Below are positions 1 through 55,666 of a DNA stretch of 64,000 nt, one piece after another; position 1 is the stretch's first letter, and each line of letters starts with the position of its first letter. Position numbers and translations under genes: made by a program. The notes beneath the pieces are model-generated. The model saw nothing but the letters and a program-made list of their open reading frames with translations. It searched no databases and had not been told where the DNA came from. The DNA is from a virus. The DNA lies in IMG/VR virus record IMGVR_UViG_3300021379_000006, positions 53,830 to 117,829 of that record; one strand, given 5' to 3'.

Positions 1-2985
1 AAAGAAAGCAGCGCCTCTTTCTACAATTGATTCATAGTTACCAGGATTAGCCATAAACTCAACAGCTTTATCATAAGCTCTTGTTCTATATTGTAGCTCA
101 CCATAGTCAACCATTTTCTTTAAGACCTCTTTTACTTTAGCTTTGTTTGCATAAGCTCCATTTTCTTCTGCTAAGAATTCAATGTAAGCAACAAATGCTT
201 TTTCTAAAGTTGATGTTTCAGTTGACTTAAGAATCTTTTCTCCATTAACTTCTTCAAGCTCACTTGCAATGGTTGTAAGACTACCAATCTTTCTTTTATC
301 AAATCTAGTTGCACCGTCTTTGCCTTTAGTTGATATTTGATTCTTGGGATCTGTTAATACCTTACGATAATTATTAAGGAGCTTAAGTTTCTTTTCTTTT
401 TTAGCCAACAACTCTGCATCAGCTTCAGATTCTTTTAATGCTATAATCTCCGCTTGTAGTAAAGAAATCTCTCTTTGTATAGTATCTGGATCCAGAAGAG
501 TTGTTAGATCACTTGCGCCTAACTTAGATATATTAATACCACCCTCTGTTCCAGGAACATATACTAAATCACTTGATGATAGTTCATTAGCAATTGTTTG
601 CATCCTTTTTAAAGAATCTTCAAATGCTGTTCTAGTAAACATTGCTAGGTATCTTGCATGATTCCAAGCTATTTGTTTGTATAACTCATTATTATACTCT
701 CTAGATCCTTTCTTATAAGCATTTGCATCATATGGATTTGGGAACTTATCATTAAGATCATTGTAGTTATCTTCTATCTTATATGATTTATCTAAGAAAT
801 CTTGCAATCTCTTTCTAACCTTACCACTCTTTGCATCTTTAGCTGCATTAGGAAAAGCTTGAGCAAGTTCTTCATCTGATAGGTTCATTAAATCTTTTAG
901 TTGTTTTCTAAAAGGTTCAATCATATCATTCTGCAGCAAAGATTCTAATTGAGCAAACTCTAAGTAATCTTGGTTATCTTTAAAACCAAGAGGATCTTGC
1001 TCATATGCAGATCTTTGTTGTTCTGCAGCAGCTTGTCTTACCTTAACAAAGTTTAAGTTTGCTGTATCAAATAAAGAATTTAGTTCTGCTTGTTGATCCC
1101 ATTTTTCATTTGCAGTCTTTACAAGAGTGTTTAAAAGATTTTCTCTATCCTGCTTGTTCTTCTGGAACTCCTCCTTATTAAAGATTCTATTATACGTATC
1201 TGGTACTGTATTATAGATAAGTTTAGATCCACCACCTAGGATACCCCCGGTAGCAAACCCAGACATAAAGACCTCAAAACCTTGAGCTGAGTATTGACTA
1301 TCAACAGCATTATTTAATGCAGCATTAAGTGCAACACGAGTGTCTGTTGCTGGATCCTTAAGCAGTTCGCTATAGTAATCTACAACACCAACTTGTAAAC
1401 CTTCTTGGTAAAGTTCCTGAACACCTTCTGCAATATTAGCTGCAAAGAATCTTAAAGCACCGTGGGCACCTTTCATCACATAATCCCCAAAACTATATGC
1501 ATTTCTTCTTTGTTGTCTACCAGCTTTGGTCCAAATGCTTTTCTTTACTTCAAAAGGACTTCTTGCTATCTTACCATCAACACCAACTGTTTTCTTAGTT
1601 TGGAGTATTTTTTTACCGAGTTTGCCAGTACTATTGTCAAGTGCTCTAGCCAATCCTCTACTAAAAGGACTAACAACAGCGCCTAAACTAATTCTATTAG
1701 TCAAATAAATTACAGGAGCGTTTGCCCAAGTTGTAGTTGAACTGGCTTTAACCGCTTGTTCTTGAATTGATGCAAGCTGAGCATCTGTTAGATTTTTTTG
1801 ACCTGTTCTATCTCTTTCAATTTGAATACCATTAGACATCATGGTATTATAAACAAACCCAGACTCAAGACGGCTTTCATCAAGAGCTAGATCAATCATT
1901 CTGATATCTCTGTAAAAACCACCAAAAGCAGCATACCCTTTACCAAGTTTATGTATTGCAGTACCTACATCTTTTGTTTTATCAAAGCTTCTTAGGGCTT
2001 GCATTGTTTCAGGTAAGAATATTCTTCCTGCTAGATTTTCTCCTGATTTAATTCCTGTCCAAAAATCACGGGCTTTATCAGTATTTCTTAAAGCACCAAC
2101 AATAGATCTCCCACCTTTAAAAGCTCTACCAATAGCAAATGCATCGCCCATTCTGTTAAACATCCTTGTAAGTCTGGCCATATTATAAGCAGTTCTTGCA
2201 GTTGAAGCTGCTGCTGCTCCTGCAGCTGCTACACCAGATGCGCCACCTGTTACAGGTGTTGCAGCAGCTAGTGCTGCCGTTCCTGCCCACATTGCAATTT
2301 CTTCTGCTGCAATGCTTGACATAATACTAATACTATATGCGGAGTTCAATGCAAATCTGTTAAATGCTGCACCAAATCCTTCACGAGTATCATTACCAAT
2401 TCTCAGGGCTTCTTCCATTTTTACAGCAGATTCTGTGTCTGGATCTCCATCAAATAAATCAAATACACCTTGATTATTATTATCAAACAGTGCATCTGAT
2501 AAACCAAAGAAACTAAAACCGGGTGAAAAGTTTTCACCAAATTGGCTCATTGCTCTACTAAAGTTATCATACCATGTAGAGTTCTCATTGTAATAAGTCT
2601 CATTGTCTCTATATGGATTAAAGCCTAAGTCTGCAAATTTTGGATGAGCATAAAAATGATCAAAGTTTGTTTCTCTAATACTAAAAGATGTTCTTGGCTT
2701 AATATCTCTTTGACTAGTTGGTTCAGAAAATGTTTGTTTAACATCAAACCACGTGTTCGCAAAATCTACAGGCTTTTGTTGAGGAACTCCTTGAGCAGAT
2801 CCAGGAACACCATTGATATAAGGACTTATGGTAGTAACCATATTAAGATACTCATCATCTACAGTTTGTAGATAATCAGGATCATATCCTAAATCTAAAA
2901 TATCAACTGGTTCATATTCTCTATTTGCTTGTGATGAATTTGAAAACCCCTGTTGATCTAGTGGTTTGTTTAAATTATTATCCAT
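1..2985 (-). CDS. N-terminal ~995 aa of a giant virion cargo/ejection protein (runs off the window; absent from the ORF track)
   Basis: ATG at 2985 (MDNNLNKPLDQQG...). Sampled segments read in frame to position 1 (...ERGAAFF). Ala/Gly-rich helices and NIAEGVQELYQEG resemble ejected proteins. Position matches the crAss-like cargo/virion RNAP block, but no RNAP motif was identified. Confidence 0.75.
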   Translation of the reverse strand, partial: MDNNLNKPLDQQGFSNSSQANREYEPVDILDLGYDPDYLQTVDDEYLNMVTTISPYINGVPGSAQGVPQQKPVDFANTWFDVKQTFSEPTSQRDIKPRTSFSIRETNFDHFYAHPKFADLGFNPYRDNETYYNENSTWYDNFSRAMSQFGENFSPGFSFFGLSDALFDNNNQGVFDLFDGDPDTESAVKMEEALRIGNDTREGFGAAFNRFALNSAYSISIMSSIAAEEIAMWAGTAALAAATPVTGGASGVAAAGAAAASTARTAYNMARLTRMFNRMGDAFAIGRAFKGGRSIVGALRNTDKARDFWTGIKSGENLAGRIFLPETMQALRSFDKTKDVGTAIHKLGKGYAAFGGFYRDIRMIDLALDESRLESGFVYNTMMSNGIQIERDRTGQKNLTDAQLASIQEQAVKASSTTTWANAPVIYLTNRISLGAVVSPFSRGLARALDNSTGKLGKKILQTKKTVGVDGKIARSPFEVKKSIWTKAGRQQRRNAYSFGDYVMKGAHGALRFFAANIAEGVQELYQEGLQVGVVDYYSELLKDPATDTRVALNAALNNAVDSQYSAQGFEVFMSGFATGGILGGGSKLIYNTVPDTYNRIFNKEEFQKNKQDRENLLNTLVKTANEKWDQQAELNSLFDTANLNFVKVRQAAAEQQRSAYEQDPLGFKDNQDYLEFAQLESLLQNDMIEPFRKQLKDLMNLSDEELAQAFPNAAKDAKSGKVRKRLQDFLDKSYKIEDNYNDLNDKFPNPYDANAYKKGSREYNNELYKQIAWNHARYLAMFTRTAFEDSLKRMQTIANELSSSDLVYVPGTEGGINISKLGASDLTTLLDPDTIQREISLLQAEIIALKESEADAELLAKKEKKLKLLNNYRKVLTDPKNQISTKGKDGATRFDKRKIGSLTTIASELEEVNGEKILKSTETSTLEKAFVAYIEFLAEENGAYANKAKVKEVLKKMVDYGELQYRTRAYDKAVEFMANPGNYESIVERGAAFF

Positions 2986-26078: not shown

Positions 26079-27305
26079 TTAGATTGCCTGATACGTTAGT
26101 TCACATACATTACCCATTTCAGAATCTTGTAATTCTATTTTACCTGATCTTCTATTACCAACATATTTATTGTGATAGTGGTAATAATCAGTTTTACAAA
26201 GACTCGGTAAGGTCTTATGAATAAACCCAGTATTCTCAGATGTAGTTATATATTCTACTTTTTTATTGCCATGAAAATGGCCAGTAAATAGAGTTCTATT
26301 TTTAGTTGTACCCCATAACAAAGGATACTCAGTTGCGTAAACTAAAGGTGTATTTTTTGCAGGTACATCTCCATGTTCAAAAGCGTTAAAGTTTTTACCC
26401 CAAACATGTACTTTTCTTTCTGCATATTCAATATCCCACGTGATGTTTTCATCTTCAATGGACTTAGATAATGCATGTGCTAAATGAAATGATGATAATC
26501 TATCATGATTACCTGGAATATAAACCACAACAAGTTTGTTACAGAATTGCTTGATATAGTTTATACCCCAATGCATAGCATCAAATGCTTGCATATAGGC
26601 TTCAGTAGCTGTACTACAATTATCTAATACTGTACCGCTAGTTGTTGTTCCATTAAATGTGTCCATGTTAATTAAATCACCACCAACAACAAAGTATAAT
26701 GTTTCTATATAGTGAGCAGAACTTGCTCTAGGTAAAAGATTCTTTAGAGTATCTTCAAAGTCTTTATCTATTGTTTCATTCCCTTCTTTACCAAAGTGAA
26801 TATCTTGTAGTGACATTATACCACAAACTTCTTGCTTATCTTTCTTAAGAAGCTTTATATCAGTCTTTTGTACTTTAAACTTCTTAGGCGTCCAGTTATC
26901 TATAAGATCTTTAAGATACTGTTCTTCAGAATTTTTAAGTCTGCTTACAAGTGCAGATACTCTCCAGTGGTCTCCCATCTGTTTATTCCAATACTGAGAA
27001 AGTTTCCAAACGGATGTGTCTATTTTTAATAGATCAATTATTTCTTCAGCTGATTTGGGCTCATGATCAAATGTCCCTGAAATCTTTCCTTCTCCTTTGT
27101 CAAGGTCAATAGCTTCTGCTATTTCTGCATTCTTAGATGCAATGCCAAAAAATTTGCGTTTGTTTCTATCTACCCTTCTTTCAGATAGTATTTGATTTTT
27201 TACTTTGATATATTCCTTTTCAGTAATACCAAGTTTTGCAGAACAATATGACGGGTTCTTTTTCCATTTTAAAGATTCCGCTACTCTTTGTTTAAGATTA
27301 GCCAT
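26079..27305 (-). CDS. Calcineurin-like metallophosphoesterase with N-terminal HTH-like segment
   Basis: Motifs DIHFG, GGD, GNHD, HGD, GHFH in canonical order. Confidence 0.85.
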   Translation of the reverse strand: MANLKQRVAESLKWKKNPSYCSAKLGITEKEYIKVKNQILSERRVDRNKRKFFGIASKNAEIAEAIDLDKGEGKISGTFDHEPKSAEEIIDLLKIDTSVWKLSQYWNKQMGDHWRVSALVSRLKNSEEQYLKDLIDNWTPKKFKVQKTDIKLLKKDKQEVCGIMSLQDIHFGKEGNETIDKDFEDTLKNLLPRASSAHYIETLYFVVGGDLINMDTFNGTTTSGTVLDNCSTATEAYMQAFDAMHWGINYIKQFCNKLVVVYIPGNHDRLSSFHLAHALSKSIEDENITWDIEYAERKVHVWGKNFNAFEHGDVPAKNTPLVYATEYPLLWGTTKNRTLFTGHFHGNKKVEYITTSENTGFIHKTLPSLCKTDYYHYHNKYVGNRRSGKIELQDSEMGNVCELTYQAI

Positions 27306-27351
27306 AATAAAAAATTAAAGGTTTACCAAATCTAATAAAAAAAAATTAAAT

Positions 27352-27380
27352 AAAAAAAGAAGGTCCCCGTAGGGACCCTC
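27352..27380 (-). terminator. Intrinsic terminator
   Basis: GAGGGTCCC-TACG-GGGACCTTC followed by T7 on the minus strand. Confidence 0.85.
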
Positions 27381-27390
27381 TCCAACGTCT

Positions 27391-27416
27391 GTGACAGAAA
27401 ACCAACAAACTACCAC
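27391..27416 (-). ncRNA. Hairpin with loop UUUGUUGGUUUU (candidate 3'UTR-derived antisense sRNA)
   Basis: Stem GTGGTAG/CTGTCAC pairs fully only on the minus strand (two G-U pairs); sits just before the terminator. Confidence 0.45.
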
Positions 27417-27425
27417 TTCTTGTTG

Positions 27426-27989
27426 TTATGCTGATAAAGTAGTTACCAAAATCTCAACTGAATCACATGTAGCAGATCCAAAAGTTGATACTACTTTTAT
27501 TTTATATTCTGTTGCTGGGCTAAGTTCACTAACGGTATAATTAGTAATTGCTGTAGCCAAAGCGTTTGTGTTTGCTTGAGTCCAACCAGATGGTGTATCT
27601 ACAGTATCATAGAATACAGCAAAGCTTTCACTTAATGATGAAATGCCATCCCAAACAATATCAATAGTTGTACTTGTAATTTTATCTGCGTATAGATTAT
27701 AAGGCGCATGGTGTACATTATCTGCAGTACATACGTCAATTCCATTAGCAATCATCAAAGCAAATTTTTGTAAAATTTGATCCAACCTTTCTCCTGATTC
27801 AACCTTCAATATACCAGAAGGAGTTTCAATTCTAAATGTAGATCCACAATAAGAAACACACTCTGTACATTGAACATCATTACAACGCTCATTACCAACA
27901 CCACACTCAGTATAAGCACATGGTGTTGTTAAACTAGTGTCCTTACATCCACAAGGATCTGAATTACATTTACTACAATTACAAGCCAT
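27426..27989 (-). CDS. Cys-rich virion protein with C-terminal fibronectin type III domain
   Basis: Cys-rich N-terminus; APYNL...IVWD...LSPATEYKIKV FN3 signature. Confidence 0.75.
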   Translation of the reverse strand: MACNCSKCNSDPCGCKDTSLTTPCAYTECGVGNERCNDVQCTECVSYCGSTFRIETPSGILKVESGERLDQILQKFALMIANGIDVCTADNVHHAPYNLYADKITSTTIDIVWDGISSLSESFAVFYDTVDTPSGWTQANTNALATAITNYTVSELSPATEYKIKVVSTFGSATCDSVEILVTTLSA

Positions 27990-37780: not shown

Positions 37781-37912
37781 TTACTTTTTTGTTGCAGTCT
37801 GCAGAGTAGCTTCGTATTGACTCAAACATGTTTTATGAACAGTTGAACCATCTGATGCTTTAGTCTTTTGACATCCGCAGCTAAACGCTTTGTTACATTT
37901 CTTACAAGTCAT
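37781..37912 (-). CDS. 43-aa Cys/His-rich protein (not in ORF track)
   Basis: MTCKKCNKAFSCGCQKTKASDGSTVHKTCLSQYEATLQTATKK; fills the gap exactly; AAACCAAC leader. Confidence 0.75.
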   Translation of the reverse strand: MTCKKCNKAFSCGCQKTKASDGSTVHKTCLSQYEATLQTATKK

Positions 37913-37932
37913 AATGTTGGTTTATTTATAGT

Positions 37933-38484: not shown

Positions 38485-38552
38485 AATATTTCTAATTAAA
38501 TAAATAATGTACTACATAGATAATATACTAAAAAAAGCTGACATTATAAAAT

Positions 38553-38582
38553 AAAAAGGGTGAGAGATTTCTCCCCCACCCT
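38553..38582 (-). terminator. Intrinsic terminator
   Basis: AGGGTGGGGG-loop-CTCTCACCCT plus T-tract on the minus strand. Confidence 0.75.
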
Positions 38583-41103: not shown

Positions 41104-42120
41104 TTATGTATTCCAGTATGGTTCTACTTTGGACATTAAGCTCATTAGAGTATCTTCATTTGCAGGATCTTTTAGATATTCAATTGCTTCATTAGGTCTC
41201 TTACCTAACTTTTCTGAACTATCTACGGTTTCAATCCAACCTGAAGACTTTGGTACTAAGAATCTATAGAACAGTGCATCTTTAACCAATGCTCTAATTT
41301 TTAGATTCTCCATTGAGTCTTTAGAAGCATCTAAGAAATTCTGAGCTGCTCTTTTTTTGTTAGACTCTGTACCTTCACCATTAATGAACGCATCCATATT
41401 TTCATACATGATATCATTTGGAGTTGACTTTGTGTATTGAATGCTATCTACATCAACACTCTTAGCCACATACATCAACTTCGTTGTATCAGTATCATAT
41501 AACTTTTGCAACTCAACCAAAGCTTTGTTCTTTAGTTTTGTGTACTGTGTTCTTTCACTGATGGTTTCTTCAATTTGATCTAAGTAAAACTTAGGTGGAT
41601 TAACCGCTTTCTTTGCATCCTTTAATGACTTTGCTACTATAGAAAAGCCGCCTGCATTGATGGCATAAATCTTAATCAAATCATATGGATCCTTTGAAGG
41701 ATCAAGATAAACTGGATCATTGCCACATCTTAAACTGATGCGTGACCAAAATTTATCATTATCTGGTTTTAATAAACTTACTTTGTTCCAGAAGTCTTTG
41801 TCTTCAGGATCAATTACATTAGCTGCTAGTTCAGCTTCAAGCTGTGCTACCACCTGTCTAATTTCTTTTACTTTCACCTCACGTTCTCCAGGTGATAGTC
41901 TTTTTACATCAGGTGCAAATTCATTAAGACCTGTAACATATCTTTTAACACCGTTTATTTCTAAACAGGCTAAAGATTCTTCATGCCACACTCCTTCGTG
42001 AAGTGCCATTCCATATTGCTCTAATCCCATGTTTTGTTTGCTAGGATCAAAGAAAGGACGTATAGCAATTGCTTGATTTTTGCTTTGCTGATACTTTTCT
42101 ACAATAGTGTAATCACTCAT
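41104..42120 (-). CDS. Conserved late protein (crAss-like gene 75 position)
   Basis: 338 aa ORF directly downstream of the capsid unit. Confidence 0.6.
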   Translation of the reverse strand: MSDYTIVEKYQQSKNQAIAIRPFFDPSKQNMGLEQYGMALHEGVWHEESLACLEINGVKRYVTGLNEFAPDVKRLSPGEREVKVKEIRQVVAQLEAELAANVIDPEDKDFWNKVSLLKPDNDKFWSRISLRCGNDPVYLDPSKDPYDLIKIYAINAGGFSIVAKSLKDAKKAVNPPKFYLDQIEETISERTQYTKLKNKALVELQKLYDTDTTKLMYVAKSVDVDSIQYTKSTPNDIMYENMDAFINGEGTESNKKRAAQNFLDASKDSMENLKIRALVKDALFYRFLVPKSSGWIETVDSSEKLGKRPNEAIEYLKDPANEDTLMSLMSKVEPYWNT

Positions 42121-42250
42121 TCTAATTGGTTTTTAAAAATTAATAATATTTAGTTGTTTACTCAAAAATAGACACATGTCTATATTTATTATTAATATTT
42201 CTAATGCTGGTTTCCCAGCAAAAGTTATTTGAGAAATAACAACTTAATCA

Positions 42251-42409
42251 TCAAGGATTTTGTTCAAGAACTTGTATTCTTTGTTCTAAAGAGTTAATAT
42301 ATTCAACTACTTCATTTAAGTGAGCAAATCTGGCCATGCCATGCTCTGATCTTGACGCTTTGTCAAGAACCTCATCACGGTTTTTTTGTTTGAATTTATC
42401 AAGTGCCAT
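42251..42409 (-). CDS. 52-aa protein downstream of the capsid gene (not in ORF track)
   Basis: MALDKFKQKNRDEVLDKASRSEHGMARFAHLNEVVEYINSLEQRIQVLEQNP; A-rich leader; C-terminal heptad pattern. Confidence 0.7.
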   Translation of the reverse strand: MALDKFKQKNRDEVLDKASRSEHGMARFAHLNEVVEYINSLEQRIQVLEQNP

Positions 42410-42423
42410 GGTATATTTTTTTT

Positions 42424-42459
42424 AAAAAAAAGGGAGGAGGTTTTACCCACCTCCCCTTT
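42424..42459 (-). terminator. Intrinsic terminator after the major capsid gene
   Basis: GGGGAGGTGG-GTAAAA-CCTCCTCCC plus T8 on the minus strand. Confidence 0.8.
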
Positions 42460-42479
42460 CTGGTTATAAAATTATGTTA

Positions 42480-44096
42480 TTAGAATGAACCTCCAGTTAC
42501 AGGGTTTCTCATAACAATTTTCAATACTTTGGTTGGATCTTTCACCCATACAGCTGGCATGGTTTGAGTCATGTAAACTCTGTAACCATTAAAGTTACCA
42601 GAAGAAGCAAAGCCTTGAGTACGTCCCATGTAGTCCATAGTACCATTTTGGTAGAACCACTTCAATTGGTTATCCCAAGACAACTTCAACAAGTGAATGT
42701 TATCGTTACCATTTTCAGTCACATCAAAGATGATGAAGCTGTAAGAGCTCAATGGACGTCCATCAATCAATGGATTCTCAACATCATTAGTGTGAAGGTT
42801 ATCAAATGCTGGGTTCAATACAAACTTAACATTTGCCAAGAAAGGAATAGTAAAGCTTGTGTAAGCAAAACCAAAGTCTAGATCCATACCTTGTCCAGTT
42901 ACAGCACCAATTTCAGATGCATTCTGTACAAGACCTGAACCGTAAACTTCATCAGCAATAGCTTTGTTAATTAGCTGCATACCACCGATACCAGTTTGTA
43001 CAACTAATTGACGCTGTGGGTCTGGTCCTTTGAACTCAACTTTACCTTGGTAGAAGTTGTAGAGTTCAGACTTAAACATATCTAGAGAGAAAGCAGACTT
43101 GTTGTAAACTCTCTTGAAAGAGTTATCCAACTGAGACCAAAGACCTACAGACAATCTGATATCATCCGGTCCGTCTTGCTTAATTCTACCACCCTTACCC
43201 CACATTAGGTAAGTTTCAATGTCATTAGCAATTTTGCTAAGGTGAGCTGCTTCCATATTAGTAACGAAAGTTCTGCTCAATCTACCTTCTTCAAATGCTT
43301 GACGTGCACCAGATTTACCCATGCTAGCTACTAATTCTTCAATAGAAGAAACAGAAGGGTTACCGCTGTCATCAAAGTTTCTCCAGATTTCCGTTACAGG
43401 CACAGTACCATCAGCATTCAAACCACCTTTGATCATAAGATCAGCGCGGCTAGATACAGAGTAGTGTACGTGTGCTTCAGCTCCACCAACAAAGTTGTAG
43501 AACTCACGGAATCCAGAACCAGTTTCAATGTCAGAGAATCTTTCTCCGTACTCACCACGTGCAGAACCTTTTCTGAAGTACTTAGTTCCAGCAGCCAAGT
43601 AAGAGTTATCCAAAGAAACAGCACTGTTGTTGTTTACCAACTGAACAGTGTAGATGAATCCGTCACCAGCAGGGATAATGTCATCAGCAGTGATGTACAT
43701 TTCCAAGCCATTGTACTTGTCATAAGTAATGATATCACCGTGACCGAAAGCTCTCTTAGAAAGCTTGATCTTAAAGGTAGTACCATCAACACCTTTTGCA
43801 TCATTTGCTGGCTCAATGTCAGCTATAACAAAAGGTAAATCTTGAGCGATTGGAGTTTGCCATTTATACTCACCACGTGCGTTGTCTACTAAGATTGTAT
43901 TCTTTCCACCAAAAGAAGCCATTTGATAAAGAGGCATTTCAACTTTTTGAGTCATTGCCCACAAATCAACTGGTCCCATATCCATAGGCTCGGCAGAACC
44001 AAGCATCTGGGTAAGGTGATAAGAATCAACATGAGAACTTGCTTTGTAGGCAGTATCTCTTAGGAAAATTCCATTGTTTAAAACAGGAGTTGCCAT
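42480..44096 (-). CDS. Major capsid protein
   Basis: 538 aa; follows terminase-portal-scaffold; strong codon bias; strong terminator. Confidence 0.85.
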   Translation of the reverse strand: MATPVLNNGIFLRDTAYKASSHVDSYHLTQMLGSAEPMDMGPVDLWAMTQKVEMPLYQMASFGGKNTILVDNARGEYKWQTPIAQDLPFVIADIEPANDAKGVDGTTFKIKLSKRAFGHGDIITYDKYNGLEMYITADDIIPAGDGFIYTVQLVNNNSAVSLDNSYLAAGTKYFRKGSARGEYGERFSDIETGSGFREFYNFVGGAEAHVHYSVSSRADLMIKGGLNADGTVPVTEIWRNFDDSGNPSVSSIEELVASMGKSGARQAFEEGRLSRTFVTNMEAAHLSKIANDIETYLMWGKGGRIKQDGPDDIRLSVGLWSQLDNSFKRVYNKSAFSLDMFKSELYNFYQGKVEFKGPDPQRQLVVQTGIGGMQLINKAIADEVYGSGLVQNASEIGAVTGQGMDLDFGFAYTSFTIPFLANVKFVLNPAFDNLHTNDVENPLIDGRPLSSYSFIIFDVTENGNDNIHLLKLSWDNQLKWFYQNGTMDYMGRTQGFASSGNFNGYRVYMTQTMPAVWVKDPTKVLKIVMRNPVTGGSF

Positions 44097-44136
44097 AATT
44101 GATTGTTATTATTGATTGTTATTATTTGTTTTATTA

Positions 44137-45417
44137 TTAAAACCTTTTAAATATGTTATTGCTTCTTTGAATCTTTCTCTTAGAAGAACGTTGTTTTGTA
44201 TCTTCTTCACGCTCTTGTACTCCAAGAGATGATCCACCAGCATTAGCTTGTTCAGTCTTAAGCTTTCTTACCGTTTTCTCAACACTTTTCTGCGCACCTT
44301 TCTCCATGATCTTGGATTTGTATCCATCAGGATCAGATAACAACCACAGTGCCTCTGAAATCAGTGTATAGTTTGGTTCAACAAACTGATACTTTTCAAG
44401 CAAGTGACCTAACAAGTTTGTATTTCTACCACTTACTGAAGGGTAATTAGGTTGTACTAAACCATTGTATAGCATAGACTGTGTCTTTCTATCAACTTTA
44501 ATATCACCTAAACTTCCTTCCTTAAGAGTATTATACACGTTTTGCATGTATTGCTGTGATGCTTGTTCTTGTTGTCTTTTGCGCATTTCTTGCTCTTGCA
44601 ATTTTTGCGCAACAATCTTTTCTTGCATCTTATCTAATTTTGGTTTGAACTTAGCAGCTTGTTGTTCAAGCTTTCCTAAGTCTTTCCAAATTTCAATTTC
44701 TTCAGCAATCTCTTCAGCTGTTCCGTAACCAGTTGCCTGGAGGTAATCTCTAATAATAGCCTCTTGATCTCTTTCATTTTTAACATCCAAACTTCTGGTT
44801 TCTTCAGTTTGAGCTAATGTTGAAAATAGACCTTTAAGGTCTGTACCTCCATCTGCTACATAACGGGCAGCTATTTGGAGTTCTTGCGGTAAACTTTCAA
44901 AGAACTGTTTGGGTGTCTCTCTTCTAACTTGTTGAGCTCTCTCTTCCAAATTAGCTTCAATGAGTTCTTCCCAGTCTTTTGCCGTATATTCTTCTAACGG
45001 CTTATCATCATCAAAAGGAACAATTTTATCATCTTTTATAAGCTTGTTAAATACATCACTTATTCCAGAAATCTTTTTTCTTCCTCTTTTTTCTTTTTTC
45101 TCTTCTACCTCATCCTCTTCATCACCTTCATCAAGTGCAGCAAATACATCTTCTGCACTTTCTTTAGGTTCTGCTGGAGTCTCTTCTTCAGCTGTTGCTT
45201 CTGTTTCAACTTCTTCTTTAGCTTGTTCTTCTTCAGAATCTGGTTCTGTAAAAGAGAAATCAGCTTCTACTGTTGGTTTACTAAATACTGATTTAGGTGT
45301 ATTTTCTTCTTGTGGAACTGTTACACTATCTGCGCCTGCAGCACCATCAAATAAAGAATCTAAATCAATGTTTTCTTGAGTAACTTTACTCTCAACTGTT
45401 TTAGTTTCTGTTGCCAT
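44137..45417 (-). CDS. Scaffold-like protein (probable start ATG 45417, MATETK)
   Basis: Acidic disordered N-terminus and coiled coil between portal and capsid; a promoter motif overlaps the track's TTG start. Confidence 0.7.
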   Translation of the reverse strand: MATETKTVESKVTQENIDLDSLFDGAAGADSVTVPQEENTPKSVFSKPTVEADFSFTEPDSEEEQAKEEVETEATAEEETPAEPKESAEDVFAALDEGDEEDEVEEKKEKRGRKKISGISDVFNKLIKDDKIVPFDDDKPLEEYTAKDWEELIEANLEERAQQVRRETPKQFFESLPQELQIAARYVADGGTDLKGLFSTLAQTEETRSLDVKNERDQEAIIRDYLQATGYGTAEEIAEEIEIWKDLGKLEQQAAKFKPKLDKMQEKIVAQKLQEQEMRKRQQEQASQQYMQNVYNTLKEGSLGDIKVDRKTQSMLYNGLVQPNYPSVSGRNTNLLGHLLEKYQFVEPNYTLISEALWLLSDPDGYKSKIMEKGAQKSVEKTVRKLKTEQANAGGSSLGVQEREEDTKQRSSKRKIQRSNNIFKRF

Positions 45418-45516
45418 AATATGTTGGTTTTTGTAATTACTAATTCTTACATATACAATATACAAAACATTTTTAGGAATAAACTTACAAAATGCAACTT
45501 ATGGTTTTGATTTTGT

Positions 45517-45534
45517 GCAGTATATAGCTATCTA
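45517..45534 (-). promoter_or_regulatory. TAGATAGCTATATACTGC motif (copy 1)
   Basis: 17/18 identical to 59861-59878; intergenic, upstream of the scaffold/capsid promoter. Confidence 0.6.
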
Positions 45535-45567
45535 TGTTTTTGCTTATATTAATTATATTAATAAAGT

Positions 45568-48333
45568 TTAGTCCTTGCTATCTTTTTTGGATTCAGAACT
45601 CTTCACATCATATCTGTTTTTGTTTTCTCTAGCAATCTGAAGTTGTTTATCAGCAACCTCTCTTTGAGCTGCTAATTTTTCTCTTTCAATCTGCATTTTA
45701 GAGTTTTCCATAGAGTTCTTTATAGATGCTTGTTCTCTTTTGAAACTGAAGTCTTCTCTTCTTTCGTTAGATCTTCTCATTTCTTTCATAGCATCTTGAT
45801 AGTCTGATATTTTATTTTCATTAATATCAACAGTAGCACCGTAACCAGCCGCTCTAATCTCAGCAACTTGAACATCTTTTTGTCTTTCTTTATCAGCTTC
45901 AGCTGCTTCAAACTGCATCTTCATCTGTTGCTCTTGAGCTTTAGCTTGAAGTTGTTGTTCTTGCATTTCTCTTTGCTGCTGCATTTCTTGTTCTCTCATT
46001 TGCATTTGTTTAGATTCTGCATCTTTCAAGATATCAGAAACCTCTGCAATAGAGTCTGCTTTGATTATATTACCGAGATCATAAATACTTGCACCAGATG
46101 TATTATTCTGAATTGCTAACTGTTTTAATTGATCTAAAATATTTCTATGATTTGTTTTGGTTGTAGCAAATACATTAAAGTCTCTCAATAATAAATCTGT
46201 TCCGTTTATTACAAAGTTTACTTTTTCTGCTTCAGATGAAATATAAGATAGTCTAACGCTTGGATTAGTGCTGTAGTAATACTGAGCAAGATCAGTACGC
46301 ATCTGATGCACCCTAGGCATTAAATGATCTGAGTGCTGCGTAAAATAAATTTCAGTCTGAGCATAAGATTGATTCAATGCTTGAGTAACTCCAGTTGCTG
46401 TCTCATTACCCATTGGTGCACCCAAACGTTGTGGATTCACACCAATAGCATCAAATGCTTGTTGCTTAAAGTAATTTGCTAATTGAATACGCGACATCAA
46501 TCTATTAGTCTGCTCCATATTTAGAGTTTGATAATGATTGAAGTTAGTTGCATTCTCCGTATTTGTAATAGAAGTATCAAGTGGTAGCATTTGGAAATCT
46601 TTCATTGCCACAAATGCTTTGGCATAATTTCCTTTACCCCAATCTTCTCCCATTGAATGTCTAGGAAGTGCATTCTGATCAAACATAATTACAGTACCTA
46701 GCTCATCTACTAGAATATCTGCAATCTGATTGTTTACCATGTTGTATCCAACTTGATACGCTTTCATAAGATCAACAAGTGATGTAGATCTAGTGTTGCG
46801 GTCAGAGAATACTCTTCCTTCTACAGGTAGTTTACATCCATATAAAGAATTATCTCCTTTAAACTGGAATGGTATTTTACCTGGTTTTTGTCTATTAATA
46901 CCTAAATAAATAGGATTAATATTATTGCTTGCATCTGATTTCCAAAATGCAGGTAAGTTTGGTCCAATCTTAACACCACCCCATACTTCATTAATCCAAA
47001 TCCAATCAATATGTTCTCCTTGAACCAGATTGTCTTTAGATTTATTTTTAAATATGGTGGTATCATACATTGGTTTTTCTGTAACCTTAAAGGTTTCATC
47101 AATGATCTCCTGAATTACCTCCCCTTCTTCTGTGATCTTAGTAAGGTGTCCAACTTTACGCTGAGTTTTCCAATAGACTGTGGTTACTCTCATTAAGGAC
47201 CCTTCCCCCCAATTAGGTAAATCATCCCCCTCATTAAGAATAGAACTGACGATATCACCCCCATATTCAGGAGAACTGTTCCAATTACTTACAAATTGTC
47301 TATAAGCTAAACTTGGTGAATTAGTATTCCACTCATGAGATTTAGTAGGATCATAGTATGCACCATCATTCTGATAGCCGGATATTTGATACCTTCCTGA
47401 TTTAGCAGGATAAATCTCTTGCAAAGACTCTAATTGTTTTTGATTCATTAGATACCCATACTTATCAATCACATCAGCTACGGTCATAAGATCCATCTTA
47501 CCTGCATAGTTAGATTGAGATATATATCTAGCATCAGGTGATTTCTGATAGAATGTAAGCACAGGATTCCAAAGTTCTAGCTCATAATCATCTTCAAGCA
47601 TTCTAAAATGCCAGAACTCTCTATCTGTGATAAGCATGTCTCTAAAAGCACGCTCCTCTAGCTCTTGCATTTTAAAACGTTCCTCATCAACATTTAATTG
47701 ATGAGAAGCCCATTCTTCTACTAGTGATCTATAATCTTTACTAAAGAAGTCTTGAATTTCAGGGAGGGTTTTAATATTCTCTGGTGCTAGTTGTTGTTGA
47801 AACTGCTCATCATTAGGATCAGCACCCATTTCAATCATCTTAAGCATTAACTTGTTTGAAGCATCCCTTAAAAGATTCTCTTCAATCATTAGTCTTTTTT
47901 GCTCTAGCATTTCATTGTAAGACAAATCATCTACAGCTCTAAATTGAACCTTTGAAAATCTTTTTGAAAATTCTCCAGATAATACATTTACAACATTGGG
48001 AATAATAGGATAGAATTTAAGTTCTAATGCTGATTCATCTTCTTTGGTAAGTACATCAACAAGATCTTTGTATTCGTTATCTTCTTCAACTATATAGTCA
48101 GTTTTGTCAATAATACCTTTTGCTAACTTATAATTCTTAAGAAGTTTTCTGGCATTTTGTCTAAGAAATTGCATACCCTGCAATTCTAACCAATCTAAAT
48201 TCCAAGCGGCCCAGTTTTCATCTTTCTTTTTAGCAGAAAGAAACTGAACTGGTTGAGTTAGACTAGACGTGGTTGGGTACCCGCTATCTGCTTTGGCACC
48301 ATTCTTTAATTGCATTGCATTAAATACCTTCAT
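45568..48333 (-). CDS. Portal protein
   Basis: 921 aa after terminase; YPIIPNVVNVLSGE motif; C-terminal Gln-rich barrel coiled coil. Confidence 0.85.
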   Translation of the reverse strand: MKVFNAMQLKNGAKADSGYPTTSSLTQPVQFLSAKKKDENWAAWNLDWLELQGMQFLRQNARKLLKNYKLAKGIIDKTDYIVEEDNEYKDLVDVLTKEDESALELKFYPIIPNVVNVLSGEFSKRFSKVQFRAVDDLSYNEMLEQKRLMIEENLLRDASNKLMLKMIEMGADPNDEQFQQQLAPENIKTLPEIQDFFSKDYRSLVEEWASHQLNVDEERFKMQELEERAFRDMLITDREFWHFRMLEDDYELELWNPVLTFYQKSPDARYISQSNYAGKMDLMTVADVIDKYGYLMNQKQLESLQEIYPAKSGRYQISGYQNDGAYYDPTKSHEWNTNSPSLAYRQFVSNWNSSPEYGGDIVSSILNEGDDLPNWGEGSLMRVTTVYWKTQRKVGHLTKITEEGEVIQEIIDETFKVTEKPMYDTTIFKNKSKDNLVQGEHIDWIWINEVWGGVKIGPNLPAFWKSDASNNINPIYLGINRQKPGKIPFQFKGDNSLYGCKLPVEGRVFSDRNTRSTSLVDLMKAYQVGYNMVNNQIADILVDELGTVIMFDQNALPRHSMGEDWGKGNYAKAFVAMKDFQMLPLDTSITNTENATNFNHYQTLNMEQTNRLMSRIQLANYFKQQAFDAIGVNPQRLGAPMGNETATGVTQALNQSYAQTEIYFTQHSDHLMPRVHQMRTDLAQYYYSTNPSVRLSYISSEAEKVNFVINGTDLLLRDFNVFATTKTNHRNILDQLKQLAIQNNTSGASIYDLGNIIKADSIAEVSDILKDAESKQMQMREQEMQQQREMQEQQLQAKAQEQQMKMQFEAAEADKERQKDVQVAEIRAAGYGATVDINENKISDYQDAMKEMRRSNERREDFSFKREQASIKNSMENSKMQIEREKLAAQREVADKQLQIARENKNRYDVKSSESKKDSKD

Positions 48334-48335
48334 AT

Positions 48336-50525
48336 CTATCTATAATTTTTAAAAGGGGATCTTTTTATTTTATGACCTCCAATGCTAGTTTTACCACGTC
48401 CTAAATTTTTAAACGGACTATACTTTAATTTACGTAAATCTTTTGAATTATCCAAAGAAACATCAGCATCTGCTTCTCTCCTTTTTAAATATCCTCTATT
48501 TGACTCTTGGATCTTTGCAAATGCCACTAATGCTGAGAAAGCCACTAGTCTATCCACGTTAAGACCAGGGTAGTATGCTAACATTTCTTTCAATAGCATT
48601 GGATCTGGTATTCTTTCAATACCTAGTGTTGTTGATAATACATTTCCATCTTGATCTGTTTCTACGTCTATCTCTTCCCTTAAGAACTCAATTGCGTAAG
48701 AAATCAAATGACTCTTGAAAAGAGTACCTGTGTTTTTCCAACCATACTCTTGATATACAGTTCTGTTACTACCTAGATCTTTTAAGAACAAAATTTGTTG
48801 TTTAGGTACAAGATATTTTTGTTTCTTCTTAGCAATCATATGCTGTATAAAAAGAGATATGTTATTCTCAACAAGAGTCCAAGCATTATACCATTCTATA
48901 ATTAATTCTAATTGCTCATGTGTTTTGTTGATATCATCATATCTACCACACCATGCAGCTACAATCTTAGCTGGTTCTATGAAGTGCTCAAGACCATTTG
49001 CTGTTTCTCTTGTTATCTCTACAGAATTTTTATAGACAAAAATACTACACAAAGAGTCTGATGTAGTTGTCTTACCCTCTGATACGGGGTCAATAGAAGC
49101 ATAATAAGCACCAAACTCTGGATTGGCTATAGGTCTTTCCCAAACAACCAAACAACCGGTCTTATCTTGAGCCTTTTTGTTTACAGGAAATTCTGAAATA
49201 GGTAGCTTATTAGATCTTTTAGCCATAATTCCATCTTGAACTCTTTCAAGTTCTATATGTTCATATGCATATTCTTTTTCTTCTATCTTCTTCATTTGCT
49301 TAGATAGAATACCTTGAGGGAATACAGATTCTTTTCTATATGCAAATGCTTCTGCAATATTTGTTGGTTTTTGAGAAATACGTAATTGATATTGCTCTGG
49401 ATTAAGATCTGCTTTCCATTTTTCTCTTTCTAATCTAATAGCTTCTAAAGCTTCTTCTATAAGTGAATTACCATATTCATCAATATGGGGTGGCATAGAC
49501 CATTGCTCAGGTATAAATAACCCAGCTAAGCCTATTGTACCATCCTTGTCCATTAGATTGGTTTCTACAGCATATATATCATTTGATGTAGGATTTAGGA
49601 TCATTTCTTTCAATGGTTCACACTGATCCAAATCACCCACAGAACCTGCTGCTATGAACATACCCGTAGTAACCATACCAGAAGACATTGCAGGACGCAA
49701 GTACTCATATGTTTGCATCATCTTAGGTGCAATACCTGCCTCCTCATGGAAGAAATAAGTTGTTGGACCCCCTACACCCGTTGTAGCATTTTTCTCAAAA
49801 GAGGCACCTTGTATTTTAGATTTAAGACCTCTAGATGTTTTCCTATTACCAACCTTAACTTCAATCTGCTGTTGCCATAGCAATACCTTCTCTGGATTGC
49901 TGGGTCTGTACCAAGCGGTATGTTCATTAAGGAATGTTTTGTACTCATCTAAAAACTTCCATGAACCTTTATCATTAATGTAGTCTTTTAGTGACGCACC
50001 AATCTTACATGTGCTACCTTCTTCAAACCAATAAGTATTGATAATCTTACCCATGTGAAAGTAAGAAGATGCAATCTGACGTTTTTTTAGAATGGCAGAA
50101 TGCTTGTAATTTAGTTCTGCTAATAGTTCATAAAGAGCCATATGATACTGAGCATCTCTAACTTTAGCAAAGCCATACTTCTTTTCTTCTTTATCATAGA
50201 TAGGTAAGAAGTTTAACCACATGTAATAATCTCTGGTAAGATACCATGTATTATCACGGTCTTTGTATATAGCACCTACGCGACATTTATCTTTTTGATC
50301 ATTCCAGTAATTTATAAAATCTCTAGATCTAAAGGGAGCAGCACAATAAAAACCGTCTTTATTAAACTTTCTAGCCTCAGCATTAAATTGAAATGATGTT
50401 TCATTAAAGTTATAAAAACCGGGTTCCTTAAATACAGATAAGATAAAGTCTAAAAAATCTTCTCTTGTTTCAAACTCTGTCTTGGACCATAGGCCATTCT
50501 GATATGTAGGTACGGATATAAACAC
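48336..50525 (-). CDS. terL: Terminase large subunit
   Basis: Walker A-like LKKRQIASS, Walker B FFHEEAG, nuclease motifs ASIDPV, VENN, NVDRLVA. Confidence 0.9.
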   Translation of the reverse strand: MFISVPTYQNGLWSKTEFETREDFLDFILSVFKEPGFYNFNETSFQFNAEARKFNKDGFYCAAPFRSRDFINYWNDQKDKCRVGAIYKDRDNTWYLTRDYYMWLNFLPIYDKEEKKYGFAKVRDAQYHMALYELLAELNYKHSAILKKRQIASSYFHMGKIINTYWFEEGSTCKIGASLKDYINDKGSWKFLDEYKTFLNEHTAWYRPSNPEKVLLWQQQIEVKVGNRKTSRGLKSKIQGASFEKNATTGVGGPTTYFFHEEAGIAPKMMQTYEYLRPAMSSGMVTTGMFIAAGSVGDLDQCEPLKEMILNPTSNDIYAVETNLMDKDGTIGLAGLFIPEQWSMPPHIDEYGNSLIEEALEAIRLEREKWKADLNPEQYQLRISQKPTNIAEAFAYRKESVFPQGILSKQMKKIEEKEYAYEHIELERVQDGIMAKRSNKLPISEFPVNKKAQDKTGCLVVWERPIANPEFGAYYASIDPVSEGKTTTSDSLCSIFVYKNSVEITRETANGLEHFIEPAKIVAAWCGRYDDINKTHEQLELIIEWYNAWTLVENNISLFIQHMIAKKKQKYLVPKQQILFLKDLGSNRTVYQEYGWKNTGTLFKSHLISYAIEFLREEIDVETDQDGNVLSTTLGIERIPDPMLLKEMLAYYPGLNVDRLVAFSALVAFAKIQESNRGYLKRREADADVSLDNSKDLRKLKYSPFKNLGRGKTSIGGHKIKRSPFKNYR

Positions 50526-50806
50526 TATTCAATTGTCTGAATTACAGCAAAAACATCTCCAGCATTAATTAGCAAATGTGTCTCACCTTCATGTTTCATT
50601 TCAGTTGGAACACAGTAATCAGCGTATTGAATTAAATCACCAGAATTTATTTCTTCTACTTCAGCGCCAACTGCAACAACAAATCCTTGATAGATCTTTT
50701 CCAACGCTGTATCTGGAATAATGATATTTGTACCAGGTATTGTTCTTTGTGCTTCTTTAGGTTTTATTAGAACCTTTTTTCCTACGGGAATTATTTTTGT
50801 TTTCAT
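50525..50806 (-). CDS. groES: GroES-like co-chaperonin
   Basis: IIPVGKKVLIK...IIIPDTA...GFVVAVG...GD...LLINAGDVFAVI cpn10 pattern. Confidence 0.9.
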   Translation of the reverse strand: MKTKIIPVGKKVLIKPKEAQRTIPGTNIIIPDTALEKIYQGFVVAVGAEVEEINSGDLIQYADYCVPTEMKHEGETHLLINAGDVFAVIQTIE

Positions 50807-50882
50807 TCTCTTTTTTATTTGGTTTTAAATTTAAGGGTTCATCCCAGTAACAGAAGACCCAGTTTTCTTTTTTGTTTGTCAT
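50757..50882 (-). CDS. Possible 41-aa peptide (MTNKKENWVFCYWDEP...)
   Basis: TAATG-coupled to the upstream gene; overlaps the GroES start. Confidence 0.4.
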   Translation of the reverse strand: MTNKKENWVFCYWDEPLNLKPNKKENENKNNSRRKKGSNKT

Positions 50883-51400
50883 TACATTTGATCATAAGCT
50901 AAACCTGCACCACCTCGCACTTGACTTTCTTGTTCTTCCTTCATATCACTAAAGGCTCCTTTGTAAGAATTTCTAATTTGCTCAAACTTGGCTGCAGCAT
51001 TTACAAGAGAGTTAATATTACCATCACGTCCATGCTCAATTTGAGTAGTCTCCATGTACCTAGCTAATCTATCAAGCATTGATTTAATACCTACGTATGC
51101 TCTATAAGTTGGTGTCTCATAAAGCTTTCTACACATATCCAAAGAGTATCTTATTTTAGAATCCTCTGTTGATTCTTCTAGTCCAACCTGTTCTACTATA
51201 ATATCTTCTTTTTCATGTTCTGGTAAATTAAAAAATGGATTTAGATCAGGGTTAGGACAAGACATGTAAAATAAATATTGATACACACTCATATATGTGT
51301 CAGGATATTCTTCCATCAAGTCTTTTAAAAATTCTAAAGTGTAGCAGTGTTCAGTTGGAATCACCTTACCATTTTGCACGTCAAATAATCTAACTATCAT
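50882..51400 (-). CDS. Conserved hypothetical protein upstream of terminase
   Basis: 172 aa ORF in a coupled operon. Confidence 0.65.
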   Translation of the reverse strand: MIVRLFDVQNGKVIPTEHCYTLEFLKDLMEEYPDTYMSVYQYLFYMSCPNPDLNPFFNLPEHEKEDIIVEQVGLEESTEDSKIRYSLDMCRKLYETPTYRAYVGIKSMLDRLARYMETTQIEHGRDGNINSLVNAAAKFEQIRNSYKGAFSDMKEEQESQVRGGAGLAYDQM

Positions 51401-52212
51401 TTCTTATTGTCTTTAAACCACATTATTAGACTATTAACTTCATCCTTCAAATACGGTAAATTATACATCTTAACCTCTTCTATCACTGGTTCTCCATTGA
51501 TGTGTTCATTAATTGGATAACCATTCTTATCTGTGCCGATCTGCTTGAATTTAACATGTTGAATAGTTAAATCACCTATCTTCAGTTTAGGGTTGTGCTT
51601 TTTAATAATATACGCATAAATACTGAGTTGTAGGTTATAATGATTCAAATTACAGTCATCTAAATGACTAACTGGGTTGTACATTTTAGATGTTATCCCT
51701 TCCCAATTAGTAAATCCTTTCTCTTTAATTTCTTTATTGGTTTTATAATCTGTAATGTTAATGTATCCATTTACAACCTCAACCAAATCAGCTTGACCAC
51801 ATAGTCCAACAGACTTTAAGTAAACTAAATGTTCTGGATATACACCATCTTTTAGTTTTTGGTTGGAAGCAATCTTGACACCGTTTTCATTTACAAGTGG
51901 TTTTACAATAGGTAGCTCTACACCATGTCTTTCAATGGTCTTAAAGTCAAGCATATCTGCTTCTCTTTGGTTATGATACCAATTACCTAATCCAATTGCT
52001 CTTTCTGTTTCCGCATCCCAAGCAGCAAGTATTTCTTTTTGGGTCATACCATACCACTTAGAACGTTTATTCTTAGCTGATTTCTTTGCTTGTGCTTTAG
52101 CATCAAACTTAGGTTTAAACATTCCAATGAAGGAAGTTACACTAGTCCAGTTTATTTTATCCTGGTCTACACTTTCATAAACATGCCCATCTTCTTTAAA
52201 AATAATTGCCAT
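51397..52212 (-). CDS. PD-(D/E)XK exonuclease-like protein
   Basis: SVTS, G-x-x-x-H, E...GQADLV...ITDYKT, YNLQLSIY motifs. Confidence 0.85.
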   Translation of the reverse strand: MAIIFKEDGHVYESVDQDKINWTSVTSFIGMFKPKFDAKAQAKKSAKNKRSKWYGMTQKEILAAWDAETERAIGLGNWYHNQREADMLDFKTIERHGVELPIVKPLVNENGVKIASNQKLKDGVYPEHLVYLKSVGLCGQADLVEVVNGYINITDYKTNKEIKEKGFTNWEGITSKMYNPVSHLDDCNLNHYNLQLSIYAYIIKKHNPKLKIGDLTIQHVKFKQIGTDKNGYPINEHINGEPVIEEVKMYNLPYLKDEVNSLIMWFKDNKK

Positions 52213-52213
52213 A

Positions 52214-52402
52214 TTATCTTAGTTTAATATCTGCTGTAGTATTCGTAACCCACATACCTAAATCATCTTGAGTATATGTTGAGTTAGTACTATTCATCCT
52301 GTATGCAATTGCATCAGCTTCAGCTCTTAGTAAAACTACAGCTGCTTCTTCTGTGATCATTTTGTATTTCAAAAGATCTTTAACTATTTCTTTAACAGTC
52401 AT
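52214..52402 (-). CDS. Hypothetical protein (probable start MTVKEIV)
   Basis: ATG 2 nt after the upstream stop. Confidence 0.6.
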   Translation of the reverse strand: MTVKEIVKDLLKYKMITEEAAVVLLRAEADAIAYRMNSTNSTYTQDDLGMWVTNTTADIKLR

Positions 52403-52404
52403 AA

Positions 52405-52707
52405 TTATAAATTTAATTGTTCTTCTTGCTCTTCTGTCATTAGTGCGCCCCACTTACCTTGTGGACATTCTGATGATAATGAGCGTGTTTTAAAATGTAA
52501 ACTGCAACCACAATCACCACAACATGGTTGAGTACCAGGAGCAAAACATTTATCTCCTTGAGTATCAAGTAGTTGGCAATCATTGCAAATTTTCATTCTT
52601 TCTTGTGCAACTATTTCCACTTCTTTTTTAGTAAAAATAGATCTATAGACACCCTCTCCTATCTTATCTATATTTTTAAATGCTTCTATTAGTTGCTTAA
52701 AATTCAT
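52405..52707 (-). CDS. Small Cys-rich (Zn-binding) protein
   Basis: RMKICNDC...CCGDCGC...CPQGKW. Confidence 0.7.
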   Translation of the reverse strand: MNFKQLIEAFKNIDKIGEGVYRSIFTKKEVEIVAQERMKICNDCQLLDTQGDKCFAPGTQPCCGDCGCSLHFKTRSLSSECPQGKWGALMTEEQEEQLNL

Positions 52708-53415: not shown

Positions 53416-53416
53416 A

Positions 53417-54636: not shown

Positions 54637-54710
54637 AATTGTTGATTTTATATGTTCTCCAACAAATATAACAAATCAAGTTTAAATACAAAAAGTTTAA
54701 AGGATTATTT

Positions 54711-55474: not shown

Positions 55475-55652
55475 AATATACCATTTAAAGATCCTACATA
55501 TATAAGATACAAATTTTTTTACCCCTAGAAAACCCATGTACTCTGTTTCTATACCAAGAGATATTATTTGTTCTGTCCCCGGACCTGCAAAAATTCTGTG
55601 TTTGGCATTGGCAGTACCCCATAATGTACGGCTCCCCTCCTAAAATTTGACA

Positions 55653-55666
55653 GGGGGGCACCCCCC
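55653..55666. repeat. G6-CA-C6 inverted repeat at the strand switch
   Basis: GGGGGGCACCCCCC in AT-rich divergent intergenic DNA. Confidence 0.7.

Follow-up and report, generated by a model that had tools for sequence, protein, structure and literature searches.

A short hairpin with a G/U-rich loop lies on the minus strand of an uncultured crAss-related phage genome, between the stop codon of a tail-protein gene and the terminator of that gene, and raises the question of what such a structure does at the end of a tail-module transcript. The window, i.e., the whole 64,000-nucleotide stretch of DNA analysed here, corresponds to bases 53830-117829 of an IMG/VR virus record (117,829 bp; complete according to CheckV). 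By PHROG and Pfam, the phage encodes a head module of the crAss type (a portal of 921 aa, the large terminase, GroES and a Crass_capsid major capsid protein, 112 bits), tail-fibre genes, and giant proteins of up to 4,988 aa. The largest is a single minus-strand ORF (G000, 41848-56814) that extends into window positions 1-2985 and has orthologues of 4,374-4,761 aa in complete relatives. The nearest cultured phage, as judged from the portal, is Leptolyngbya phage Lbo-JY46 (34.6% identity), and the gut crAss-like phages stand at ~23%.

The gene that precedes the hairpin codes for a 187-aa protein with an FN3 domain (Pfam fn3, 27.6 bits against a cut-off of 25), which matches PHROG 4971, a tail-protein C-terminus. 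Between the portal and capsid genes lies a gene whose product is very acidic and has 426 aa; no family match was found for it, and the label putative scaffold used here denotes position and composition only. Cultured phages returned no match when searched with this protein, or at the DNA level with the hairpin locus.

A conserved hairpin beside a terminator

The hairpin occupies minus-strand positions 27425-27383, and an intrinsic terminator lies directly 3′ of it (Table 1). The preliminary description had placed a GTGGTAG/CTGTCAC stem with a 12-nt loop between the FN3 stop codon and its terminator, and the structure was found at that place. Read on the minus strand, the TAA stop of the 187-aa gene is followed by CAACAAGAA, GTGGTAG, TTTGTTGGTTTT, CTGTCAC and AGACGTTGG, and the terminator reads AGAGGGTCCC-TACG-GGGACCTTCT, followed by a T run. 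The RNA after the stop codon is then CAAC AAGAA GUGGUAG UUUGUUGGUUUU CUGUCAC AGAC GUUG G, the terminator hairpin, and a U run. Its minimum-energy (MFE) fold has four parts, namely a 4-bp outer helix (CAAC/GUUG), an internal loop, the inner stem of seven pairs (two adjacent G-U pairs among them) with the 12-nt loop, and the terminator. The G+C-rich hairpin plus U run that defines an intrinsic terminator is present in the downstream hairpin only, not in the seed hairpin, and the two are separated by 8-10 nt. The inner stem alone is weak in the window genome (-2.5 kcal/mol, versus -5.5 to -6.7 kcal/mol for the folded hairpins of four relatives), and in the ensemble the 5′ flank CAACAAG partly pairs with UUUGUUG, the 5′ half of the loop. 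Read by eye, the outer helix is swapped to GCG/CGC in locus L038 and to UUAAC/GUUGA in locus L037. A pseudoknot between the upstream CAACAA and the loop UUGUUG was set aside, because the L038 swap favours the CAAC/GUUG helix. A promoter hairpin, a replication origin and a pac site were rejected on position, as the element lies directly before a terminator, in single copy and in mid-genome.

Table 1. Coordinates of the hairpin, its terminator and the leader words complementary to its loop in the window genome
Feature	Position	Strand	Basis or remark
187-aa FN3-domain gene	27426..27989	-	ORF call; hairpin in its 3′UTR
CAAC, 5′ arm of the 4-bp outer helix	27422..27425	-	MFE structures; alternative partner is loop UUGUUG
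GUGGUAG, 5′ arm of the inner stem	27410..27416	-	fold and covariation
UUUGUUGGUUUU, 12-nt loop, proposed seed	27398..27409	-	invariance; predicted unpaired
CUGUCAC, 3′ arm of the inner stem	27391..27397	-	fold and covariation
GUUG, 3′ arm of the outer helix, within conserved ACGUUGG	27383..27386	-	fold and alignment
Intrinsic terminator (11-bp G+C-rich stem, tetraloop, T run)	27350..27382	-	
AAAACCAACA, 5′UTR of the putative scaffold gene (ATG at 45417)	45422..45431	-	perfect 10-nt loop complement
AAAACCAA, 5′UTR of the 338-aa gene downstream of the capsid gene	42126..42133	-	8-nt complement
AAACCAACA, leader of the 43-aa Cys-rich ORF (37781-37912)	37915..37923	-	9-nt complement
AAAACCAA, GroES leader	50819..50826	-	8-nt complement; site not conserved
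AAAATCAACAA, leader of the 100-aa gene (54636)	54639..54649	-	11 nt including one G-U; site not conserved

No convincing internal promoter for a discrete hairpin RNA was seen at the locus. A processive antitermination RNA (nut/put type), which acts downstream of a promoter and carries polymerase past later terminators into promoterless genes, was also considered: the hairpin is followed by a terminator at 8-10 nt, but the next gene has its own promoter-like TAnnTTTG box in most relatives. Such boxes precede many genes (e.g., TAGATTTG before the exonuclease gene and TACTTTTG before the 338-aa gene), and they are also found before genes in cyanophage Lbo-JY46; therefore, the machinery that reads them may be the phage's and not the host's.

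The conservation of the locus was analysed in 80 related loci, which were fetched via the downstream 408-aa exonuclease gene (58-95% protein identity) and, with the window included, represent 59 unique sequences. In 80 out of 80 the core TTGTTGGTTT was found no more than 400 nt upstream of the exonuclease gene, and the loop core UUGUUGGUUU was present in all of them. The order of stop codon, hairpin and terminator on the sense strand was likewise kept in 80/80 loci, which bears out the claim that the element has the layout of a 3′UTR-derived sRNA, placed between a stop codon and the gene's own terminator.

The arms of the inner stem vary among relatives (GUGGUGG/CUACUAC, GUGAUGG/CUAUCAC, GUAGUGG/CUACUGC and GUGGCGG/CUGUCAC), and pairing is retained. 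In a 42-sequence alignment (A2), 98% of the 294 inner-stem cells were paired, a value reached by none of 500 shuffles, and shifting the 3′ partner by up to 3 columns either way left only 28-81% of the pairing. Changes on both sides were observed at two stem pairs (11 cells), GC↔AU in nine sequences and UA↔CG in two. The loop columns of the same alignment were invariant, except for one inserted T (U) in two rows. The neighbouring terminator stem covaries strongly and freely while the loop stays constant, so the invariance of the loop does not merely reflect low divergence. A loop not kept where the stem is had been named beforehand as a refuting result, and the test came out in favour of the proposal: the loop stays constant while the stem changes. 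The loop is also predicted to be unpaired (median probability 0.91-0.93, and above 0.5 in 55-57 of the 59 unique sequences), as is required of a conserved single-stranded seed. All 15 sequences whose folds were compared share the same three-part architecture.

A covariance model gave one hit of 65-70 bits per genome in six complete genomes, the next best scoring 19 bits. At gathering thresholds, Rfam found only three tRNAs in the 64-kb window and no family for the hairpin; a permissive scan of 27300-27480 reached 20.4 bits at best, where 58.7 and 70 would have been needed. At least 120 IMG/VR stretches contain the exact 16-mer GGTTTGTTGGTTTTCT, and among the 80 matches listed ~46 have the hairpin-terminator context and ~34 are unrelated occurrences. 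No clade with an altered loop core was found, and when the L037 exonuclease served as query for intermediate clades, the main clade came up again. We conclude that the hairpin is a conserved structured RNA, far beyond chance.

About 45-60 nt upstream of the hairpin, the last FN3 codons of many relatives (L007-L081) read TGTAAACCAAT(A/T)GAAAT, encoding C-K-P-I-E, which puts AAACCAAU in cis near the loop; the word is absent from the window's own subclade. This is probably a coding coincidence, although the word could mask the seed.

A second hairpin with the UUGGUUU loop, at 58877 on the plus strand, had been taken as added support. The covariance model did not find it (E≤5), and among five complete relatives UUGGUUU occurs in the 150 nt before the orthologous gene in G002 alone. 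When relatives of the gene on its downstream side were sought, two distant loci were all that was found. It was rejected as a homologue, being neither homologous nor conserved. It lies within a strongly structured intergenic stretch that ends in a T run (58840-58945, plus strand), whose closing stem shows a compensatory difference between the window genome (GAAGAAGAGTTTGC/GTAAGCTCTTCTTC) and G002 (GAAAGATAACTTG/CAAGTTATCTTTC); the structure is not conserved in G001 or G003-G005.

Complementary words in the leaders of head-module genes

All five complementarities between loop and leaders that had been listed previously are present in the window genome, with 10, 9, 8, 8 and 11 nt (the last with one G-U pair). 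As counts within one genome they are at chance level: with 220 control loops of the same composition (U9G3), 114 reached the observed three leaders with an 8-nt match and 23 equalled the single 10-nt match. U-rich loops easily find partners here, because the leaders of the window genome are A-rich. For this purpose within-genome enrichment was also discarded (AACCAA is 3.9-fold enriched in leaders, but generic A-rich 6-mers are enriched 4-8-fold), as were extra AAACCAACA sites inside genes, which are not conserved between genomes. One site that is perfectly complementary to the loop over 12 nt, AAAACCAACAAA, is located in the large-terminase coding sequence (49360-49371, plus strand, the gene's sense strand being minus) and is not conserved in five complete relatives.

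It is the comparison among relatives, rather than the within-genome counts, that indicates that the element and three of the five proposed targets are non-random. For the putative scaffold gene, 80 loci were fetched around the gene and their leaders compared. AAACCAA[C/T] was present in 39/39 unique leaders, and positions t2-t8 of this tag (AAACCAA) were invariant in 45/45. Position t9 was C in 40 and U in 5, t10 was A in 42 and G in 3, and conservation decayed past t10. All eight leaders that vary at t9-t10 carry C>U or A>G changes, which still pair with a G or U of the loop, so that nine contiguous loop-tag pairs can be formed in 45/45 leaders. RNA pairing would predict just such an asymmetry, with a G/U regulator that does not vary and an A/C target in which only transitions accumulate; the independent events behind it are few. 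The distance of the tag to the ATG varies, and so does that to an upstream promoter-like word, TATATT[GA]TATATGTAAG (0 to ~17 nt for the latter). This word, or TGTATATTAT, is conserved upstream of the scaffold and 183-aa genes (45440-45462 and 38485-38560, both minus strand; L112-L191). The scaffold 5′UTR of L140 has three tandem copies of the tag (AACCAAT TATT AAAACCAAC TATT AAAACCAACAA).

The tag is also conserved before two other genes. AACCAA was found in 29/31 unique leaders of the 338-aa gene that follows the capsid gene, and the two untagged leaders look like mis-called starts. The 43-aa Cys-rich ORF has AAACCAA in 25/27 unique leaders, and 22 of these place its first C 7-11 nt ahead of the ATG; over the three genes this C is mostly 7-12 nt upstream of the start codon, and up to 18 nt in a few leaders. 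The 43-aa ORF itself lies between the 183-aa and 173-aa genes, has a zinc-ribbon-like pattern (M.CKKCNK.F.CGCQK...DG..VHK.C) and occurs in most relatives; ORF lists with a minimum of 50 aa or more do not include it. Across six complete genomes the tag was present before the scaffold gene in 6/6, the 338-aa gene in 6/6 and the 43-aa ORF in 5/5, and before any other gene group in at most two of the six (baseline 38/734 ORFs). Conserved complementary sites are thus present at the initiation regions of three genes, as is the case for sRNA targets. The tag was found in 0/32 capsid, 1/50 portal and 0/52 terminase unique leaders, and hence it is not a general expression signal. Two other leaders, which had been counted among the targets, do not share this conservation: AACCAA occurs in 8/37 unique GroES leaders (2/4 genomes) and in 7/33 unique leaders of the 54636 gene (1/6 genomes, with a wobble form in 3/6).

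In 17 ortholog groups with at least 20 unique leaders each, the only 7-8-mers present in at least 80% of the leaders were AAAACCAA(C), before two genes, and promoter-like AT words. Only 4 of the 220 same-composition loops would match conserved leader words equally well, and these four are expected to represent the same core in a shifted register. When duplexes were predicted with ~100 leaders per genome, the scaffold leader was among the top five in 6/6 genomes and first in three. Its median ΔG was -12.4 kcal/mol, all other groups being at -7.2 kcal/mol or weaker; one of 60 control loops reached -12.4 kcal/mol, and it was a register-shifted copy of the same core. The target 5′UTRs are unstructured, their MFE values of -2.8 and -2.5 kcal/mol being no lower than those of shuffled sequences.

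The exact 16-nt complement AGAAAACCAACAAACC was also observed ~12 nt upstream of the ATG in small IMG/VR contigs (L243, L247, L253, L256, L277, L281, L204 and L209), whose proteins start with MAEERR or MVEERR and whose match has no hairpin-terminator context. Leaders with this A/C-rich character may occur more widely.

Genome G006 is an outlier whose loop lacks one U (UUGUUGGUUU, followed by the C of the stem). Its scaffold leader, GAAACCAACA, is a perfect 10-nt match to its own shortened loop, and its 338-aa leader reads AAACCAACA. This is the one compensatory change between loop and target that was seen, and a weak one, loop and tag being otherwise nearly invariant. A second outlier, G008, has a longer loop (U7GUUGGUUUUAA) and has kept the tag before the scaffold gene only, as AACCAAUAAAAACCAAAU. 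In the distant, cultured phage Lbo-JY46 there is a syntenic hairpin, AUAUAAA-UUUGUUGGUUG-UUUAUAU, with a terminator, ~340 nt upstream of the exonuclease homologue. The chance of the 10-mer occurring at that place and on that strand was estimated at ~1e-3, and therefore the hairpin is likely homologous to that of the window. No tag was found before the Lbo-JY46 gene in the scaffold position, and AACCAACA was not enriched in that genome (6 occurrences versus 10 for a control word). Its best predicted target, a 73-aa gene, reached only -10.4 kcal/mol. If the two hairpins are homologous, the conservation of the loop is older than scaffold pairing. Lbo-JY46 is the strongest argument that the loop may be kept by something other, or older, than pairing with the scaffold leader.

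Possible functions of the hairpin

As judged from the sequences, the hairpin is probably a phage-made RNA that controls the translation of three head-assembly genes. The more specific reading, a base-pairing RNA embedded in a 3′UTR that blocks translation initiation on these genes, has in our estimate about an even chance of being correct. A structured RNA would be carried at the 3′ end of the tail-fibre/FN3 transcript, its 3′ end being set by the abutting terminator. The loop, either within the mRNA 3′ end or after processing, would pair in trans with the A/C-rich tag AAACCAA(CAA), forming 9-12 pairs with the scaffold leader, 8 with that of the 338-aa gene and 7-9 with that of the 43-aa ORF. 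Pairing from a few to ~20 nt upstream of the ATG would block 30S binding and lower translation, and the output of the head genes would thereby be tied to the level of the tail-module transcript. The target 5′UTRs being unstructured, pairing more plausibly blocks initiation than opens a structure. Between the head genes and the hairpin lie strong terminators on the minus strand (42456-42434 and 38585-38554). The tail-fibre/FN3 unit therefore has the hairpin at its end, and any action on the head mRNAs could only be in trans. The accumulation of the RNA, the duplex in vivo, and the sign and timing of the effect are what we infer from these features. Counted against pairing are the predicted duplexes, which are short and A/U-rich (-8 to -12.4 kcal/mol), the marginal inner stem in the window genome, and the predicted masking of half of the loop by the 5′ flank. 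The tag, moreover, lies at the position of a ribosome-binding signal and could have its own, independent reason for conservation.

The main rival, which we consider unlikely, is that the hairpin is a binding site for a phage protein or for a host single-stranded G/U-binding protein (e.g., an RRM-type Rbp). Once bound, such a protein would influence the tail-module mRNA in cis, through its stability, termination or translation, and the complementarity to the leaders would be incidental or secondary. A run of 16 invariant bases (GGUUUGUUGGUUUUCU) displayed by a covarying stem is how a protein operator usually looks, the word GUUGG is repeated (once in the loop, once in the conserved 3′ flank ACGUUGG), and the look-alike hairpin of Lbo-JY46 exists in a phage whose scaffold leader has no tag. 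However, no candidate protein was identified. A protein site also leaves unexplained that the sole conserved motif of head-module leaders is the exact complement of the loop, before three genes, and that all substitutions in the scaffold tag are wobble-compatible.

Less probable still is a purely cis-acting 3′-end module, in which two hairpins would improve termination or protect the mRNA and AAACCAA would be an independent translation or processing signal of the three genes. As expected of such a module, hairpin and terminator are always adjacent, and a promoter-like box of its own precedes the next gene. Likewise, the first C of the tag sits at a Shine-Dalgarno (SD)-like position in 22/27 leaders of the 43-aa ORF, and exact 16-mer complements are also present in the leaders of unrelated small contigs. 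A stabiliser, however, requires a stem and not an invariant 12-nt loop (the adjoining terminator stems vary freely), and a general signal does not fit capsid, portal and terminase leaders that have no tag. Finally, a double-strand DNA-binding regulator reading AAACCAAC/GTTGGTTT in either orientation at the three leaders and the terminator is very improbable: the same word is on both strands and the tags are near promoter-like motifs, but the stem covariation and the fixed hairpin-terminator arrangement indicate a single-stranded nucleic acid, the spacing between tag and promoter-like motif varies, and the tag is always on the mRNA strand.

Under the preferred reading, that of a base-pairing RNA, the proposal in the preliminary description that the tail-fibre transcript may feed back on head assembly is supported for the three conserved leaders and not for GroES, the 54636 gene or the 58877 hairpin. 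Its broadest form is a family-wide, phage-intrinsic regulon, in which an anti-leader RNA at the 3′ end of the tail operon sets the translation of the scaffold and two head proteins through the AAACCAA tag, with no known chaperone, as a tail-to-head feedback old enough to have a look-alike in Lbo-JY46. This wider proposal is offered tentatively, and we would place it somewhat below an even chance.

Comparison with known systems

No description of such an RNA in crAss-like phages turned up in a literature search, nor any paper that names Lbo-JY46. In a 2025 review of phage-derived sRNAs, a term search found that capsid, scaffold, structural genes and crAss are all absent. As far as these sources go, RNAs by which virulent phages control their own morphogenesis genes in trans appear to be essentially undescribed. 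If the pairing is real, the hairpin would be a simple and testable example of head-protein stoichiometry controlled by an RNA, would give a new RNA family to the annotation of crAss-related marine phages, and would provide a natural seed-and-tag pair working on leaders that have no SD sequence. SD-less translation is described for Bacteroidetes (PMC6847099 and PMC7797042), a group that may or may not include the host of the window phage.

The 3′UTR-derived or -embedded base-pairing sRNAs of bacteria are a class reviewed in PMC9438474, and CisR is reported to act on a CTXphi mRNA (PMC13250501). The hairpin resembles the bacterial 3′UTR sRNAs in lying between a stop codon and the intrinsic terminator of the mRNA, in its short single-stranded seed, and in predicted targets that are the translation-initiation regions of several mRNAs. 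It also differs from them: neither sequence nor Rfam links it to the class, its seed is presented in a hairpin loop instead of a linear stretch, and both regulator and targets are in the genome of a virulent-looking crAss-related phage.

Closer in some respects are phage antisense RNAs. The c4 RNA of P1/P7 and the CI RNA of P4 are immunity RNAs whose loop sequences face repeated leader words, and they control immunity or early operons of temperate phages from within the same operon as their targets. The hairpin described here is, like them, a phage-encoded structured RNA with a loop complementary to short words upstream of phage genes, and its loop stays constant while the stems vary. Unlike them, it is predicted to act on three head-module genes that lie 10-18 kb away and belong to other transcription units, and its sequence is unrelated to that of the P1 and P4 RNAs. 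The antisense RNAs of plasmids and toxin-antitoxin systems have recognition loops with YUNR U-turn motifs, and they are cis-encoded and fully complementary to their targets. The present loop is also G/U-rich, contains UUUG and UUGG, both of which fit YUNR, and sits on a short stem of the kind suited to fast pairing, whereas its predicted pairing covers 8-12 nt and would take place in trans. In phage P22 the synthesis of the scaffolding protein is autoregulated post-transcriptionally, the effector being the scaffold protein itself. The scaffold gene would likewise be singled out for post-transcriptional control in the crAss-related phage, but unlike in P22 the predicted effector is an RNA.
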